Shown: positions 20,810 through 28,374, numbered from the stretch's first letter. The stretch: DNA of 32,000 nt from Promethearchaeia archaeon (GCA_046497275.1 JAWOFX010000088.1:1-32000); one strand, 5' to 3'. The notes: generated by a model not told the origin, from the letters alone. A program made the numbers and translations.

Positions 20810-22015
20810 ATGATGTCTGAAAATATGGCACAAAAAGGATTTATAGGACCAAAGGCTCTATTTGATCCATTTTATGTTCCTCCCAAACTTCTTTTTAGAA
20901 AGGAGGAAGAATCTTCTCTTCTCTCAATCCTAAATGATAGCTTTAAAGATAATTTTTCAATAAATATTTTATATCAAGGAATTGAAGGAATCGGTAAAAA
21001 GGCAATAATTAATAAAGTTCTTAGAGATTTATACAACTCTGACCAATATTTTCAACTATATAAAAAGATTCCATTAGACTGCAAAGAGAAAAGTCTTGAA
21101 GAAATTATAATTAGTTTAATTTCAATACTTTCAAAATATTCAAATCTTGGTTGTGAAATAAGTACTATATTAAATTCAAATATTTCGAAGTTATGGAGCA
21201 TCTTAAAATTGATGTGTAAAAAGCTTGATAATCATGTGATTTTTATTTTCTATAATTCTGAATTTCTTGAAACAAAAATCCAAAAAAAATTTCTAAGGTT
21301 TGGTAAAAATTCTAATATTTCCATTATTTCTACTGTGAATAATGTATTAAGACAAAATTCTTTAGATTTAATTTCTGATTATGATTTAAAAAGAAAATTA
21401 GACTTTTTTTCTTACGATCAACTTATCTCAATTTTTACTCAAAGAACTGATCTCAGTTTTTCCTATCAAGTAGATAGAGAATTGATTGAATTAATAACTG
21501 ATCTAATTTTTGAAAACTATGTTCCGATTCCAGGTAAAGGAATTAATATACTTCGAGATCTTTACCCTCCTCTAAAAAACAAACATAGTTTGGATTATAA
21601 TACTTTGCTTAAGATATGTGAGAACCATTTTGACTCTATTCATAATCAAGACGAATTCAATTTGCTAAATTACTTAGCTGAAGAAGATCTCTTAACAGTT
21701 TTATTCTTAGATAATCTAATAAATCATTTCATTTCTGATACATCAAATTATTATATAAATCTCGAAGATTTAAAGCAACTCTATTTGATCTCATGTGAAT
21801 CCTTAGAATATAGTAATGATCTTCAGGAATTCATGGATATTATAACAAGATTGAAAAATATTGGTATTATAAGCCCTTCTAAGAAAGGGATGGATTTAAC
21901 ATATGATATCTTACTTGAGAATGAATTTTCAAAAAATTACTATTTCTTAGTTCTAAATCCGATTAAATTGAAAGCAATGCTAGATGCAATTTTTTCTCAT
22001 AGAAGATTCGTTTAA
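20810..22015 (+). CDS. Degenerate Orc1/Cdc6-family AAA+ protein with a C-terminal winged helix
   Basis: FDPFYVPPKLLFRKEE (cf. LxPxYVPxxLxxRE), Walker A-like GIEGIGKK, a Walker B site lacking DE (IFIFYNSEFL), and wH-like LY..SCE...F..IITRLKNIGII. Confidence 0.8.
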   Translation: MMSENMAQKGFIGPKALFDPFYVPPKLLFRKEEESSLLSILNDSFKDNFSINILYQGIEGIGKKAIINKVLRDLYNSDQYFQLYKKIPLDCKEKSLEEIIISLISILSKYSNLGCEISTILNSNISKLWSILKLMCKKLDNHVIFIFYNSEFLETKIQKKFLRFGKNSNISIISTVNNVLRQNSLDLISDYDLKRKLDFFSYDQLISIFTQRTDLSFSYQVDRELIELITDLIFENYVPIPGKGINILRDLYPPLKNKHSLDYNTLLKICENHFDSIHNQDEFNLLNYLAEEDLLTVLFLDNLINHFISDTSNYYINLEDLKQLYLISCESLEYSNDLQEFMDIITRLKNIGIISPSKKGMDLTYDILLENEFSKNYYFLVLNPIKLKAMLDAIFSHRRFV

Positions 22016-22149: not shown

Positions 22150-25100
22150 TTGACATATATAAAGAGAATAAGCATGACTGGTTTTAAATCATTTGGTGAT
22201 AGAACTGTGACTGTGAGACTCTCTCCAGGGTTTACTTGCATAGTGGGTCCAAATGGGGCGGGTAAATCGAATATAATTGATGCTTTATGTTTTTCCCTCG
22301 GGAGATTATCTAAAAAAACAATGAGAGCCGAAAAGCTTGAGGATCTCATTTTTGCTGGATCAAGAGGTCATAAAGAGGGAAATAGAGCATCAGTGACCCT
22401 CTACTTCGATAATTCAGAAGGAATCTTTCCAGGTGGGACGGATGAATTTCAAATCTCAAGGATTGTGAGAAGAAATAAAGGAAATAAGTATAAAATGAAC
22501 GGCAAGATCACCACAAGACAACAGATTCTTGATACTCTAGCATCTGCTAATATTGATCCTGATGGGAGTAATCAATTTGTTTTACAAGGAAAAATAGTCG
22601 AATTAACCCACATGAACACAATTGAACGACGCGAATTTATTGAAGAATTAATTGGCCTTCAAAAATATGATGATATGAAAGAAGAGACTATGAAAGAATT
22701 AGAAAAAGCTGAACGTGACTTAGGACAATTTGAAGCAATTTTCAAAGAAGTTTCTTCTCAACTAAAAAAAGTTGAAAAAGAGAAAAATGATGCTCTTGCA
22801 TGGAGAGAATTGGAACAAGAAATTAATAGTTTAAAATCAAAATTAATTGCTCTGAAAATTTCGAAATTAAAGGAAGAAGAACAAGAAATAGAAAATCAAA
22901 TTGATGAAACTAAAAAAATTATCGAAGAATTAGAGGAGAAGATAAGAATCCAGAATGATGTTGTTGAACAAGAATCTTTGGTTATGGAAAATATACAAAG
23001 ATCTATTAATCAAAAAGAAAAAGAAAGAGATGAGATAAATGAAAGTATAACTGAATTAAAAACTCAACTATCTTCCAATAATACCACATTGGAAATGAAT
23101 CAAAAATCTTTGAAAAAACTTCAAGATGAGAAAACAGATTTAGAAAATAAACAAATGAAATTAGAAGAAGATCAGACTTACGACTCTTTAATTTCAGAAT
23201 CATTAGAAAAAATCAAAAAGATTGAACTAAAAGTTGAAGAAGCTAAAAAAGAAATAGACCAAAGACAACAATCCCAAACAGAAATTGATGAGCAAATTAA
23301 TCTTAAGGAACAAGAAAAATCCAATTTAAAATCAGAAATCTCAGAATTAAAACAAAAGATTTCATCCAAAAATTCAACGATAAAACATTTGAGCAACAAT
23401 ATTAACAAAAATATGGAAAAAAAAGAGAAATTAGAGGCGGAACTAAATAATCTGAAGGGGGAATCTGAAAGTATAGAAGATGCAATTAAAACTAAAAAAG
23501 CTGAAGAGGATAAAATTCGAAATGAAATTGAGGCTTTGAAAAATAGCATATCCAAGGAAAATGAAAATCGAAGAACGCTTGAAGAGACTATTAATTCTAA
23601 AAGAAATGAAGTAAATGAAATAAATTCTCAAATTTCAGAATTCAATTCTGCTTTATCTTCCATAAATACTGAAATAAAAATGCATAAGGACACTATTAAT
23701 AGTTTAACTGAAAAGAAACAGCAAAATGAAACAAAGGTAGATAATTTAAGTAAAGGAAAAGACATAAAAAAAGCACTAGAGGATCTAATTCAAGAAAAGA
23801 AGAAAAATTTAGAGGAAATCGAGAGTTTAAGAAAAAAGTTGAAAGAACAAAATTTTGAAATTCAGCAGATTGAAAAAAATCAAGAATTATTTAAAATGAA
23901 GTCAGATTCTGCGCTCTCTGAAATTAATGATAATCAATCAAAAATAAGTAATTTAATTACTCGTGTAAATCTCTATAAAAAGGAAATAAAAAATTTAGAA
24001 AGAGAACAAAAAACTCTTTCTTTAAAGGCCAACACCCTGGAAGAAAATATCTCAAAACATGACCAAAAAATAGAAGATTTAGTTAGTAAGAAAGAAAACG
24101 TTTTAAGGCGTTTAAGTGAATTAAATGCTGAAAGAGAAAGAACTCAGAAACGAATTGACAGAGCTGAAGAAGAATACGAAAAAGATAAAAAAGATATAGA
24201 AGGAATTCTGCAAATATTAAATATGTTAACTCAAAATATTAATATCTCTGTAGAATCCATAAAAAGTAATATTCAACAATCAAATGCTGAAGCAATTGAC
24301 ATGTCTGCAGAGGATTTTCGAAAATTTATTTTAGATGTTATAGATATGATGAAAACTGTTGAGGATGTAAGTTGTGAGGTGGAAGAAATAAGTGAAATGG
24401 AAAATACCTTGAATTCAATGATGCAAACCCTGTCTTTATTTACGGATAATGCAGATCAAACTATTGGACAATTGATAACTAAGGTTAAAGATTCTGTTGA
24501 TGTTGCTGTTCAAGATTCTACTTCTAATTTTGATAATTTTGTTCAAGATTTAATGGAAATTTTAGAAAATATGCATGTCTCTTTAAGAAAATTAACCGTT
24601 TCTAAGAGTCAGGATTTATACAAACAACTTGAGGAGATTATCCAAAACATTAAGGATCAAGATGACGATTTGAATAATATAGAAAAACAAATATCTGAAC
24701 TTAAAATTGAGAAAAATTATGACCTAAAAGACCTTTCTCTTTCAAAAGATAAATTAACAAAAGTTAAGGAGAGGTTCTCGGAGTTAAGCAATAAAATCTC
24801 TAACTCTGAACAAGAATTAGAAGAGAGAAATCAATTAGTGAATAAAAAAAGTAAAGAAAAGGATGAAATAGAAATTAAATTAGGCGATTTAAAGAAGTCT
24901 AAAGAGAAAATGTGGGAAAACATTTCAAATACTCAGGAAGAAATTGGTGTAAAACAAACAGAATTGGAGAAAGTTCAAGTAAAGCTTCAAGAGATGAGAG
25001 ATATTCACACCTTATTTGAAAATATCGAAGAAATTGAGTCAAATATCTCTGAATCTGAGAATCTCATTAAAGAGAAAAAAAATTCTATAGTGAATATAAA

Positions 25101-26595
25101 TGAGAAAATTAGCAGTTTGAAAAACCAACAAGAAACAATTTTAAAAAAAATTGAGAGTTTAGATAAGGAAAAAGAAGAGTTTTGGGAAAAATCAGAGAAT
25201 TTACAAGAAAAAATTGATGATAAAAATCGAGAACTTGAGAAGATATTAGATAAATTAAGATCTTTGGAAAATATTCAACGAATGATTAATACTATTGAAG
25301 AATTGAAAAAAGAAAATATTGAATCAGAAAAAAATATTGAACAAAATGAAAAAGATATAAATCAATTAAATGAAGAAATTTCATCCATTCAAGAAAAAGT
25401 TAATAATAAACAAGAAGAGATTGATTTATTAAGAAAAGAAAAAACGAAAGAGATTGAAGCTCAAAAGGATGCTCAGAAAAAATTAAACCAATTCAATAAG
25501 AATTTACAAAAAAGCCAAAATGAATTAAATAATCTTAAAAAGAATAAAGAGAGAGAAGACACTATAAAATCGATCACTAAAGAAATATCTCTAACAAAAA
25601 CCCAAACTTCAGAATTGACCCAAAAAATTGATGAAATGCAAAAGAAATTAGAAGAAGAAAATAACAAAAAATTGGAGAAACAAACAGAAATTGATAAATT
25701 AACTGAAGAGAAAGATGAATCCTGGAAAAAGCAAAAAAAATACCAAAAAACATATACAGATCTAAAATCAGATCTTTCAATGAATCAATCAAAGCTAAAT
25801 AATTTTGAGTCTAAAAAAATTGCTACAACTGATCAAATTGAAACCCTTTATCAAAGATCAAAAGATTATGGAGCACTCCCCCATATTACTGAGGGGATCA
25901 CTGAGGAACAATTACAATCCAGTATAGATGAAGCAAATAAAAATAAACAGGCTCTTGAACCCGTTAATTTGAAAGCAATTCAACAATATGATGCTGTGAA
26001 AGAAAGATTTGACGAAATTGATATGAGAAGACAAACTATCCAACGTGAAAGAAAATCTATTTTGGATGCAATCGAGAAAATAGAATTGGAAAAGACTCAA
26101 ACTTTCATGAAATCTTACCATGAAATTAATAGAGAATTCTCCAAGATATTCCAAAAATTATCTCCGGGTGGTTCTGCAAAAATGATTTTAGATCGACCTG
26201 ATAAACCTTTTGAAGGTGGTATCAGTATTGAAGCGCGACCCAGAGGAAAAAAGATCGCATCCTTGGAGATACTTAGCGGGGGTGAGAAAACGCTGGTAGC
26301 TCTCTCTTTCATATTTGCCGTCCAAGAATTCTATCCTGCACCGTTTTATGTCATGGATGAGATAGATGCCGCTCTCGATGGCCCAAATGTTCATCGTGTT
26401 TCTATGGTAATAAAGGAATTTGCTGAACAAGCACAATTCCTTATTATAAGTCATCGAGAGGAAAATATTGTTAATGCGGATAGAATATATGGAGTATCAA
26501 TGCAAGAAAGCGGAATAACCGATATTTTCAGTGTCGATTTAGAAGAAGAAGCAAAACGCTTAATAGAACCTGAAGAGGCTGCATCTAAAACCTAA
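22150..26595 (+). CDS. smc: SMC ATPase (condensin-type heads), unusually long, with a non-canonical apex
   Basis: Walker A GPNGAGKS (aa 33-40), Q-loop FVLQG, VNLKAIQQY, signature LSGGEK (aa ~1375), Walker B/D-loop YVMDEIDAALD, and ISHR. SD GGAG precedes the TTG. Confidence 0.95.
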   Translation: MTYIKRISMTGFKSFGDRTVTVRLSPGFTCIVGPNGAGKSNIIDALCFSLGRLSKKTMRAEKLEDLIFAGSRGHKEGNRASVTLYFDNSEGIFPGGTDEFQISRIVRRNKGNKYKMNGKITTRQQILDTLASANIDPDGSNQFVLQGKIVELTHMNTIERREFIEELIGLQKYDDMKEETMKELEKAERDLGQFEAIFKEVSSQLKKVEKEKNDALAWRELEQEINSLKSKLIALKISKLKEEEQEIENQIDETKKIIEELEEKIRIQNDVVEQESLVMENIQRSINQKEKERDEINESITELKTQLSSNNTTLEMNQKSLKKLQDEKTDLENKQMKLEEDQTYDSLISESLEKIKKIELKVEEAKKEIDQRQQSQTEIDEQINLKEQEKSNLKSEISELKQKISSKNSTIKHLSNNINKNMEKKEKLEAELNNLKGESESIEDAIKTKKAEEDKIRNEIEALKNSISKENENRRTLEETINSKRNEVNEINSQISEFNSALSSINTEIKMHKDTINSLTEKKQQNETKVDNLSKGKDIKKALEDLIQEKKKNLEEIESLRKKLKEQNFEIQQIEKNQELFKMKSDSALSEINDNQSKISNLITRVNLYKKEIKNLEREQKTLSLKANTLEENISKHDQKIEDLVSKKENVLRRLSELNAERERTQKRIDRAEEEYEKDKKDIEGILQILNMLTQNINISVESIKSNIQQSNAEAIDMSAEDFRKFILDVIDMMKTVEDVSCEVEEISEMENTLNSMMQTLSLFTDNADQTIGQLITKVKDSVDVAVQDSTSNFDNFVQDLMEILENMHVSLRKLTVSKSQDLYKQLEEIIQNIKDQDDDLNNIEKQISELKIEKNYDLKDLSLSKDKLTKVKERFSELSNKISNSEQELEERNQLVNKKSKEKDEIEIKLGDLKKSKEKMWENISNTQEEIGVKQTELEKVQVKLQEMRDIHTLFENIEEIESNISESENLIKEKKNSIVNINEKISSLKNQQETILKKIESLDKEKEEFWEKSENLQEKIDDKNRELEKILDKLRSLENIQRMINTIEELKKENIESEKNIEQNEKDINQLNEEISSIQEKVNNKQEEIDLLRKEKTKEIEAQKDAQKKLNQFNKNLQKSQNELNNLKKNKEREDTIKSITKEISLTKTQTSELTQKIDEMQKKLEEENNKKLEKQTEIDKLTEEKDESWKKQKKYQKTYTDLKSDLSMNQSKLNNFESKKIATTDQIETLYQRSKDYGALPHITEGITEEQLQSSIDEANKNKQALEPVNLKAIQQYDAVKERFDEIDMRRQTIQRERKSILDAIEKIELEKTQTFMKSYHEINREFSKIFQKLSPGGSAKMILDRPDKPFEGGISIEARPRGKKIASLEILSGGEKTLVALSFIFAVQEFYPAPFYVMDEIDAALDGPNVHRVSMVIKEFAEQAQFLIISHREENIVNADRIYGVSMQESGITDIFSVDLEEEAKRLIEPEEAASKT

Positions 26596-26605
26596 AAACT
26601 TATGG

Positions 26606-27610
26606 GTGATTATCATTTCAAAAAAGGAAACAAATGAAGAATATAATTTTAAAGATTGGACTGTTAATGAACTAAGGGATTTTGCAGCAACTAATAATAT
26701 TTCGATTCCAGCAGGATCTAGAAAAAATGAAATTATAGAATTATTAGAAGGTATTGTATCTCACCCTGATTTTGTTGATAGGACAAAAGAAGAGAATTTT
26801 GAAGAAGAGTTAATAGTGGGGGAAGAGGAAGATGATTTAGCTCCCTTATTTAAAGAAGATATGAAAAATCTAAAATTCTGGCATAAACCTCCTTACTCAA
26901 CTCTCCTAAATATTGAATTGGCAAAAGATTCAGACGTGGCTTTTTATGATTTATCTACATTAGTCGATAAATTCTTCGATAAAATGTTAAGAGAGGAATA
27001 TATTAATTATAAAATCTCCGGCATTGCATTGAAAACTTCAGCATCATTACATCATCACAAAATAAATAGTGTTATAAAGCAAGAGGAGGAGATCCAGAAA
27101 CAAGAAAAAATTGAAGAAATGAGAAAAAGAGCCAGGCGAAGAATTCCAAAAACCCTTTCTCAACCATTACGACCTAAAATGAAAATGACAAGTAAAGATG
27201 AATTATATGAAGCCATGAGGGCTGCTATAATTGAAACTATGCAAAAAAAAGAGAAACTTAAAAGAAGGAGATTAAAAAGAGAGCAGAAATTAGAAAAACG
27301 TAGAGAAGAAAAAGCAAAAGCTAATTTACCAAAAGAATTATTAAAACACATTAGTGGGAGAGAACAAACAATAGAAGAACTGCATAATTCATGGTTTAAT
27401 AAGATAAGAACTAAAATCAAACTTGAAAATAAAGAGGATACTTCCTTTTTTGACCTTATAAAATTAATCAATGAAGAGGAAGAGAGTTCGTTAGGAAGAA
27501 AATATGAATTTATAAGAATGTTTTTAGCACTAATGTTTTTAAGCACGAGCAATAAAATAGAATTGAATCAAGATCAAGAATTTAAAGATATTAAAATTTC
27601 TTTACCATAA
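26606..27610 (+). CDS. scpA: Kleisin ScpA with an N-terminal extension
   Basis: N-kleisin region (PPYSTLL...FYDLSTLVDKF...SGIAL..SASL) and C-terminal wHD FIRMFLALMFL...IELNQDQEFKDIKI; directly downstream of smc. Confidence 0.88.
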   Translation: MIIISKKETNEEYNFKDWTVNELRDFAATNNISIPAGSRKNEIIELLEGIVSHPDFVDRTKEENFEEELIVGEEEDDLAPLFKEDMKNLKFWHKPPYSTLLNIELAKDSDVAFYDLSTLVDKFFDKMLREEYINYKISGIALKTSASLHHHKINSVIKQEEEIQKQEKIEEMRKRARRRIPKTLSQPLRPKMKMTSKDELYEAMRAAIIETMQKKEKLKRRRLKREQKLEKRREEKAKANLPKELLKHISGREQTIEELHNSWFNKIRTKIKLENKEDTSFFDLIKLINEEEESSLGRKYEFIRMFLALMFLSTSNKIELNQDQEFKDIKISLP

Positions 27611-27645
27611 TACTAATTTTAATAAATAAGATAAAGGATTTGCTT

Positions 27646-28374
27646 ATGCCAGAAGAAAAATCACACAAGGATTTAGAAGCTAATGATCAAGAAAATAATA
27701 TGTCCCAATCTGATGAGATAAAGCAGCAAAATGATATTGAGACCGATAAAGATGACCAATCTAATAATAATCAAGAGGAAGAAGATTTTGATGATATGAT
27801 TAGAACTCAAGATTTGTTTCAATCTAATGGTGATCAAGAAGAGGTCTTACTTGAAGAGAATCTTGAAGATTATCAAAGAAATCTAATTGAAGGTGCCTTA
27901 TATGCTTCTGGAGAACCGTTAACAGTCGAGGAGATATATACAAGATTAGACATCTCCAAGAATGATGTTCAAAAATATCTAAATGAATTAATTGATATGT
28001 ATGAAACGAGGAGTACAGCGCTTACTATTATTAATATTGGAGATAAATATCAGATGCAAATTAAATCCGAATATACTGAACCGATTTCTCAATTTGCCGA
28101 GGGAGGTGGTTTAGCAGAGAAATATTTACGTACCCTTACAATAATAGCACTTAAGCAACCTATTTTAAAATCAATCTTAGTTAAGATTAGAGGTAGTGGT
28201 GCCTATGAGCATGTCCAATATTTAATTGATAATGGATTTTTAAACTCCATTAAAAAAGGGAGGACCTCTGAATTAACAACAACAGAAAAATATGCTGAGA
28301 CTTTTGGACTACCTAAAAACATCGAAGAAATGAAAAAAGAAATGGTTGCTCAATTGGGTATTGATAATGAATAA
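27646..28374 (+). CDS. scpB: KITE subunit ScpB with an acidic N-terminal tail
   Basis: IEGALYASGEPL, YQMQIK, LRTLTIIALKQPI, IRGSGAYEHVQYL and TTEKYAETFGL. Confidence 0.92.
   Translation: MPEEKSHKDLEANDQENNMSQSDEIKQQNDIETDKDDQSNNNQEEEDFDDMIRTQDLFQSNGDQEEVLLEENLEDYQRNLIEGALYASGEPLTVEEIYTRLDISKNDVQKYLNELIDMYETRSTALTIINIGDKYQMQIKSEYTEPISQFAEGGGLAEKYLRTLTIIALKQPILKSILVKIRGSGAYEHVQYLIDNGFLNSIKKGRTSELTTTEKYAETFGLPKNIEEMKKEMVAQLGIDNE

Follow-up and report, generated by a model that had tools for sequence, protein, structure and literature searches.

The DNA analysed here, hereafter called the window, is a stretch of 32,000 nucleotides (nt) from a Promethearchaeia archaeon (GCA_046497275.1, JAWOFX010000088.1:1-32000). 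It carries an smc gene, whose product is a long SMC (structural maintenance of chromosomes) protein with tandem repeats in both of its arms. Translation of the open reading frame (ORF) gave the 1481 amino acids (aa) announced in an earlier reading of the bare sequence (the original prediction), and the SMC head motifs are intact: GPNGAGKS (Walker A), LSGGEKT (signature), VMDEIDAALD (Walker B/D-loop) and IISHR (H-loop). The protein matches PF02463 with 121.8 bits, and TIGR02168 with 606.7, over the cut-off of 567.35; its score with the archaeal-type model TIGR02169, 655.1, is under the cut-off of 729.4. The scpA and scpB genes lie directly downstream of smc on the same strand, and this adjacency, together with the family matches given in Table 1, makes ScpA and ScpB the predicted partners of the SMC. 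The ScpA-like kleisin is long, and its PF02616 match is limited to the C-terminal part. Upstream of smc, an ORF of 401 aa (20810–22015) has no Pfam match.

The closest relatives of the proteins of the window are annotated as Lokiarchaeia or Promethearchaeota (Asgard archaea). The source genome measures 3.85 Mb, and the GC content of the window is 25–35%. The same genome encodes a second SMC, a paralogue of 1155 aa (contig C84, L010:5296-8763, + strand), which has a Pfam hinge (36.5 bits), while its head and arms have diverged strongly (TIGR02168, 240 bits). The small ORFs on either side of it gave no family matches, and the paralogue may be of the SMC5/6-related archaeal type described in PMC8665677. 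The best match in the genome to the SMC equivalog models is the 1481-aa protein and, in a tree of head domains, the hinge-less clade that contains it groups with canonical Asgard SMCs. Since the other SMC of the genome is far more divergent, the 1481-aa protein belongs to the canonical SMC lineage of this Lokiarchaeia-type Asgard archaeon, and does not derive from a paralogue.

Table 1. Features of the smc locus, in window coordinates (aa, residues of the 1481-aa SMC unless a protein length is given)
Feature	Position (nt)	Strand	Remarks
smc gene	22150-26595	+	TTG start, 1481 aa
N1	23005-23295	+	aa 286-382; N1-N2 E 2.6e-10; conserved Gly column 341
N1 helix break, predicted	23152-23178	+	aa 335-343, AlphaFold2
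N2	23296-23589	+	aa 383-480; N2-N3 E 1e-12; Gly column 437
N2 helix break, predicted	23455-23475	+	aa 436-442, AlphaFold2; lowest-confidence break in the arm, pLDDT 45
N3	23590-23880	+	aa 481-577; Gly column 536, 98% conserved
N-arm stretch absent from 1299-aa form	23629-23919	+	aa 494-590, 97 aa; placement within the array arbitrary
N3 helix break, predicted	23752-23763	+	aa 535-538, AlphaFold2
N4	23881-24171	+	aa 578-674; diverged full unit
Apex region	24172-24639	+	aa ~675-830; two long helices and a variable acidic loop, aa 739-747 (nt 24364-24390)
C-arm stretch absent from 1299-aa form	24736-25005	+	aa 863-952, 90 aa; placement within the array arbitrary
C0, putative half unit	24754-24888	+	aa ~869-913
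C1	24889-25158	+	aa 914-1003; W922; predicted helix break at Gly 951
C2	25159-25428	+	aa 1004-1093; W1012; pLDDT dip and change of heptad phase near aa 1035-1057
C3	25429-25698	+	aa 1094-1183; heptad shift at ~aa 1135-1139
scpA-like kleisin gene	26606-27610	+	334 aa; PF02616 25.0 bits versus a cut-off of 24.6 (marginal)
scpB (kite) gene	27640-28374	+	244 aa; PF04079 116.6 bits, TIGR00281 100 bits

The four N-arm unit starts given in the original prediction all fall in frame, at residues 286, 383, 481 and 578 (spacings of 97, 98 and 97), as does the first C-arm unit start, at residue 914, and the peptides it quoted are exact. Trp residues stand at positions 922, 1012 and 1192 as claimed, and the protein contains a single further Trp, at 218. 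Among 67 aligned orthologues W922 and W1192 never vary, and W1012 is kept in at least 90%. Autocorrelation of BLOSUM scores peaked at offsets of 195 and 97 in the N-arm, and of 90 and 180 in the C-arm, whether the single sequence or the 67-orthologue profile was used.

Such a periodicity could arise without any duplication, from the composition and heptad bias of a coiled coil, or by convergence imposed by a partner that binds periodically. The protein is a low-complexity coiled coil rich in Lys, Glu and Asn, from a genome of 27–30% GC. To measure such bias, Smith-Waterman scores between units were compared with those of 300 shuffles that preserve the composition at each heptad position. The z values were 4.9 for N1-N2, 6.5 for N1-N3 and 5.9 for N2-N3, and 9.9, 3.1 and 4.2 for C1-C2, C2-C3 and C3-C4, respectively. 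For all three N-arm pairs and for C1-C2, none of the 300 shuffles reached the observed score. N4, taken as a single sequence, was weak in this test.

Units were also cut out of the 67-orthologue alignment and compared profile to profile with hhalign. In the N-arm, E values were 1e-12 (N2-N3), 2.6e-10 (N1-N2), 4.6e-8 (N1-N3), 6.9e-7 (N3-N4) and 1.2e-5 (N2-N4); in the C-arm they were 8.3e-13 (C1-C2), 2.5e-6 (C2-C3) and 2.8e-5 (C1-C3). For the main pairs among N1 to N4 and C1 to C3, the matches covered the full unit and were in register. Comparisons of N with C units served as a background, and by bias alone they reached E values of ~1e-4 to 6e-5. Homology between N and C units was rejected on this ground, the best value of 6e-5 being no different from coiled-coil background. 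The in-register, full-unit matches at 1e-8 to 1e-13 are 3–8 orders of magnitude better. Moreover, no 90/97 periodicity was found in related Asgard SMCs of normal length (1155–1193 aa), whose canonical arms have a similar composition. The original prediction had staked the repeats on scores better than those of shuffled heptad controls, and they exceed both these controls and the N-versus-C background. An origin of the repeats in composition or convergence is therefore hardly credible, and three N units and two C units score far better than coiled-coil background.

N4, C3 and the half unit C0 can be assigned to the arrays less firmly, chiefly on their exact register. C0 matched C2 with an E value of 2.9e-5, in register over positions 46–90, and it also lies on the profile diagonal d=90. 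The fourth N unit (578–674) had been called partial; it does exist, but as a diverged full unit, which hhalign aligned in register with both N3 and N2. The C-arm would then comprise three full units preceded by the half unit, while the segment that follows, C4 (aa 1184–1273), shares with them only the opening LxxEKxxxW motif. At the DNA level no long-period repeat was present: Tandem Repeats Finder reported short A-rich microrepeats only, and periods of 291 and 270 nt went undetected. As identities between units are also low (21–37%), the duplications must be old.

The structure of residues 165–1300 was predicted with AlphaFold2 from the 67 orthologues, with a mean predicted local distance difference test score (pLDDT) of 79.3. 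The model is entirely helical and forms one hairpin, with a single turn at 739–747 (about residue 743). The best Foldseek matches of the arm model were arms of the SMC family (MukB, Smc4, Smc5/6, JetC and Rad50). The model, the heptad phase and these matches all point to a long intramolecular antiparallel coiled-coil arm.

In the model, the N-arm helix is broken once per repeat unit, at the conserved Gly residues 341, 437 and 536. The C-arm has a one-residue break at 951, and further breaks at 1238–1251 and 1269–1275, near the C-terminal head; its pLDDT dips to 53 at aa 1035–1044 (nt ~25252–25281). The heptad phase of the C-arm moves by one position at ~950, 1045 and 1137. One such shift per C unit is expected, because 90 = 13×7 − 1. 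Counting residues outward from the turn (i+j ~1486, minus each loop passed) places the N loops at 536, 439 and 339 opposite C positions ~950, 1041 and 1134, which are the C-arm discontinuities. This would explain why the two periods are unequal: 97/98 would be roughly 90 helical residues plus a loop of ~7. The units would then face each other as N1/C3, N2/C2, N3/C1 and N4/C0, and the unit boundaries, which were found independently in each arm, coincide under this pairing. The discontinuity in the middle of the arm, present on both strands at facing positions (436–442 and 1035–1044), is a candidate elbow.

To collect relatives, the N-terminal head was used as a query against 400 genomes of the phylum, and the genes were then cut out. 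They fall into three size classes. The long class (1464–1500 aa) is found in two families (f1 and f3) of the order to which the window belongs, and the short class (1296–1299 aa) in one genus of family f4 (genomes G280 and G281), plus the protein P0131. The hinge family PF06470 was not detected in either class. The outgroup class (1155–1193 aa) covers the rest of the class and the phylum; PF06470 was found in L013, L015, L025 and G279, and relatives of 1180–1189 aa carry it, while L016 and L024 gave no match to it at E≤0.001.

When the 1299-aa form was aligned to the window protein with MAFFT L-INS-i, it showed one gap of 97 aa in the N-arm, one of 90 aa in the C-arm (Table 1), and a 5-aa gap at the tip. 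The discrete lengths and the step of about 187 aa that had been predicted for orthologues were thus recovered, as 97 + 90 aa between the 1299-aa and window forms. The midpoints of the two missing stretches sum to ~1450 and the head boundaries to ~1460, so that in an antiparallel rod the stretches would face one another. Apart from this step, arm length hardly varies among these orthologues: the arms of the 67 aligned orthologues, which include rows of family f3 at ~32–35% identity over the rod, contain a single 2-aa indel site, and the only further differences in length are confined to the tip loop.

One may ask whether the repeats, although real, arose independently in each arm, with unpaired units and with the 97/90 pair of indels a coincidence or an artefact of alignment. 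The register of the arms is inferred and not observed, and gap placement is ambiguous in a repetitive coiled coil; with a global aligner in which gap extension is cheap, the gaps did fragment. Nevertheless, in eight long forms the total per arm remained 93–98 aa (N) and 86–93 aa (C), and measures independent of any alignment, namely anchor-motif spans and Trp spacing, agreed. The span from the head-end motif to the apex motif is 521 aa in 108 of the 108 motif-matched long orthologues, versus 425 aa in the 1299-aa form; from the apex motif to LEPVN it is 456/458 aa versus 368 aa; and the first and last conserved Trp are 270 aa apart in the long forms, versus 180 aa in the short one. The N loops would lie opposite the C discontinuities, and an antiparallel rod could not absorb a 90-aa excess in one strand only. 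The hierarchy of similarity, finally, is mirrored between facing units: 37% identity for N2/N3 and 36% for C2/C1, 28% for N1/N2 and 26% for C3/C2, and 26% for N1/N3 and 21% for C3/C1. We consider it very improbable that the two arms evolved independently.

For the history of the paired modules, the simplest reading is that of at least two rounds of paired duplication. In the head-domain tree, all long forms together have the 1299-aa clade as their sister (support 91/89), and a long stem (0.67) separates the two from the 1155–1193-aa outgroups. The 1299-aa form retains units that resemble each other (z of 5.7 for N1'-N2' and of 6.7 for the equivalents of C2'-C3'). An older round, producing N1/N2 together with C3/C2, would predate the split of the 1299-aa and long forms. 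A younger round, N2 to N3 together with C2 to C1, would have added 97 and 90 aa on the stem of the long forms. Because the rod would be an intramolecular antiparallel hairpin, each round would need two tandem duplications ~1.1 kb apart, presumably as separate events. The original prediction had a whole arm module copied about three times; the copying of paired modules agrees with the present results, and for the count, at least two rounds that can be traced is the safer wording.

The polarity could also be the opposite: the hinge-less ancestor would already have been long, and the 1299-aa lineage would have lost one N and one C unit by unequal recombination. In favour of such a loss, the short form is confined to one small clade (G280, G281 and P0131), tandem repeats favour deletion as much as duplication, and the N-arm autocorrelation is higher at 195 than at 97, which a simple, most recent duplication of a single unit does not predict. 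However, with the 1299-aa clade sister to all long forms and outgroups that lack the module, an insertion on the long stem needs fewer events. In addition, the stretch that the short form lacks is flanked or overlapped by the most similar pairs (N2/N3 and C1/C2), which would be expected of the youngest duplication. A loss in the short lineage is thus unlikely, although less so than either of the alternatives discussed above, and gain on the long stem is the direction that we infer.

The earlier step, from canonical SMCs to the 1299-aa form, amounts to ~+97 aa in total between the head anchors. An attempt to split it into modules was abandoned, since MAFFT scattered the gaps and the exchange of hinge and apex confounded them. 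The arithmetic of a 187-aa module pair minus ~90 aa for the hinge-to-apex exchange fits this step, and we make no claim on it.

Two observations on distribution were made along the way. Family f4 holds both a hinged SMC of 1188 aa (L032:1017-4580:-, in G279; PF06470 99 bits) and the hinge-less 1299-aa form (L011:1399-5295:- and L012, in G281 and G280, respectively); this may reflect horizontal movement of the hinge-less lineage, or a family grouping that does not follow SMC history. A long-form SMC of 1472 aa (L027) was found on an 8.6-kb contig of G063, a genome from a distant family (f16) in another class. With a support of 100/100, its sister is sequence L019 of f3, which points to horizontal transfer or to a mis-binned contig.

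At the tip of the rod no globular hinge was found. Residues 620–880 gave no match to PF06470 even at E≤10, the orthologues and the 1299-aa form gave none either, and a permissive Pfam scan and a PDB sequence search of residues 600–900 returned generic coiled-coil noise only, with no sequence relative in the PDB. The apex that takes its place (aa ~675–830) is the best-conserved part of the rod. When shifted by 71 residues, the sequences of its two helices are alike (z 6.5, a score that none of 500 shuffles reached). The loop between them, KTVEDVSCEVEEISEM, contains a single Cys (742) that is not conserved, so that there is no CxxC zinc hook. Predicted alone, the apex again formed two helices, with a pLDDT of 63, which was judged too uncertain for a fold search. 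A prediction of residues 660–840 in two copies scored 0.02 and counts neither for nor against a dimer.

An apex-domain profile was searched against 1.8 billion representative proteins. The full-length SMCs that it matched measured 1464–1497 aa or 1296 aa, with no other size class among them. It also matched non-SMC proteins of ~900–1180 aa (P0137, P0139, P0140, P0144, P0146 and P0151), which carry one to four apex-like stretches, the first near residue 50. No Pfam family was found in the four that were scanned (P0137, P0139, P0140 and P0144), and the two whose sequences were inspected, P0137 and P0140, have a long basic tail rich in Lys, Ser and Thr. No such protein was found in the genome of the window. 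These matches suggest that another family of Asgard proteins contains the same module as the SMC tip. P0123 (1094 aa) was considered as a variant with a longer C-arm and rejected: it joins an SMC fragment (about residues 692–1218 of the window protein) to repetitive, surface-protein-like sequence, and most probably results from a chimeric assembly or a chimeric gene call.

The arm-length periodicity of ~91 residues, on which the original prediction built, was confirmed in the literature. Engineered chimeras of Bacillus subtilis Smc are functional only at arm lengths that follow a 91-aa period, a value near the superhelical period of coiled coils (~99 aa), and natural prokaryotic Smc arm lengths cluster at 163, 238, 341, 423 and 515 aa (Bürmann et al. 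2017, PMC5344682). The two forms described here, long and 1299-aa, are natural variants about one period apart, and they are the only two full-length size classes that bear the apex. Rough estimates of their arm lengths, ~510 and ~417 aa, respectively, lie near the 515 and 423 modes, and change with the residue chosen as the start of the apex.

We propose the following model. The rod would be one long antiparallel coiled-coil hairpin, leaving the head at about residue 170, turning near 743 and returning to about 1290; by residue count its length would be roughly 75–80 nm, versus ~47 nm for B. subtilis Smc. Most of it would consist of about four tandem modules, capped by the conserved two-helix apex. 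A module would be made of an N segment (97/98 aa) in which Gly marks a loop of ~4–9 residues, and a facing C segment of 90 aa with a heptad discontinuity. Tandem duplications would have occurred in each arm-coding region, and only length-matched combinations would have been retained. With ~90 helical residues per module, close to the 91-aa functional period, a change by a whole module would keep the angular relation of heads and apex, and the superhelical register would be preserved. That only whole modules are seen, and that arm length is otherwise frozen, may be because only length-matched module pairs keep the geometry from head to tip.

Several points weigh against this model. The predicted template modelling score of the rod, 0.32, is low, although a rod of such length would be expected to score so, and the pLDDT of the apex is no more than 44–75. 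The pairing register comes from predicted break positions, heptad shifts and length bookkeeping, and not from observed contacts, and N4 and C0 are weak units. No single-arm intermediate was seen among the relatives, and we know of no one-step genetic mechanism that duplicates two segments ~1.1 kb apart. A module of ~90 residues is roughly 0.9 of a nominal superhelical turn of 99 aa, so that exact preservation of phase is not established. Steps of a whole turn are demonstrated for one step only; the step from canonical to 1299 aa, during which the hinge was also replaced, does not for that reason split cleanly into modules. Even so, we hold it to be probable that this SMC is a hinge-less hairpin rod of paired modules, which passed through at least two rounds of paired duplication and whose arm length steps in modules. 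A broader proposal is more tentative, and we regard it as possible rather than likely: that one Asgard order possesses a hinge-less rod of ~80 nm, in which one-turn modules with built-in breaks serve as flex points or elbows (especially 436–442/1035–1044), arm length is quantised by co-duplication, and the apex is a new element for SMC dimerisation or DNA contact, shared with the non-SMC Asgard family.

The quantised arm length of SMC proteins was known from statistics and from engineered B. subtilis proteins, and the natural route between allowed lengths was not known. The present forms provide a natural sister pair one module pair apart (97 + 90 aa), and more than 100 orthologues with almost no other arm indels, which is independent comparative support for the periodicity rule. 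They also suggest a concrete evolutionary route for arm length, by paired tandem duplications filtered for matched length. With their defined module boundaries, the 1299- and 1481-aa proteins are a ready natural construct pair. The setting adds to their interest, Asgard archaea being the closest prokaryotic relatives of eukaryotes, and the hinge of this SMC having been replaced as well. A literature search with little coverage of subscription journals found no published description of a paired-repeat architecture in Asgard SMCs.

Among known systems, the Asgard protein resembles prokaryotic Smc-ScpAB (B. subtilis, Pyrococcus), with which it shares an ABC head with all ATPase motifs, a long antiparallel arm and the operon with scpA and scpB. 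It differs in being ~300 aa longer, in its two-helix apex in place of a hinge, in its modular arms, and in falling below the TIGR02169 cut-off. As in the rule of Bürmann et al. (PMC5344682), the sister forms are one step apart, at 90 helical residues per strand; there, however, quantisation was deduced from length statistics and engineered chimeras, whereas here a homologous sequence module is present in both strands.

A hinge-less SMC clade with neither hinge nor CxxC zinc hook has been described in marine Actinobacteria (Sussfeld et al. 2025, PMC12153180). The Asgard protein similarly combines an SMC head with an antiparallel coiled coil without either element. In contrast to that clade, which belongs to a different domain of life and for which no arm repeats or elongation were reported, it keeps scpAB and coexists with a second, hinged SMC in the same genome. 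Rad50/SbcC likewise have a head and a hairpin coiled coil without a globular hinge, and Rad50 arms are among the Foldseek matches. Yet the Asgard SMC has no conserved CxxC hook, its neighbours are scpA and scpB instead of Mre11/SbcD, and Rad50 models give it at most 107 bits, versus cut-offs of 700–1087. Finally, in tropomyosin, whose coiled-coil rod consists of seven units of ~40 aa (cited in PMC5344682), rod length likewise corresponds to a whole number of homologous units. Tropomyosin dimerises in parallel, so each unit had to be duplicated only once, whereas the antiparallel Asgard rod would need two length-matched duplications for every module.

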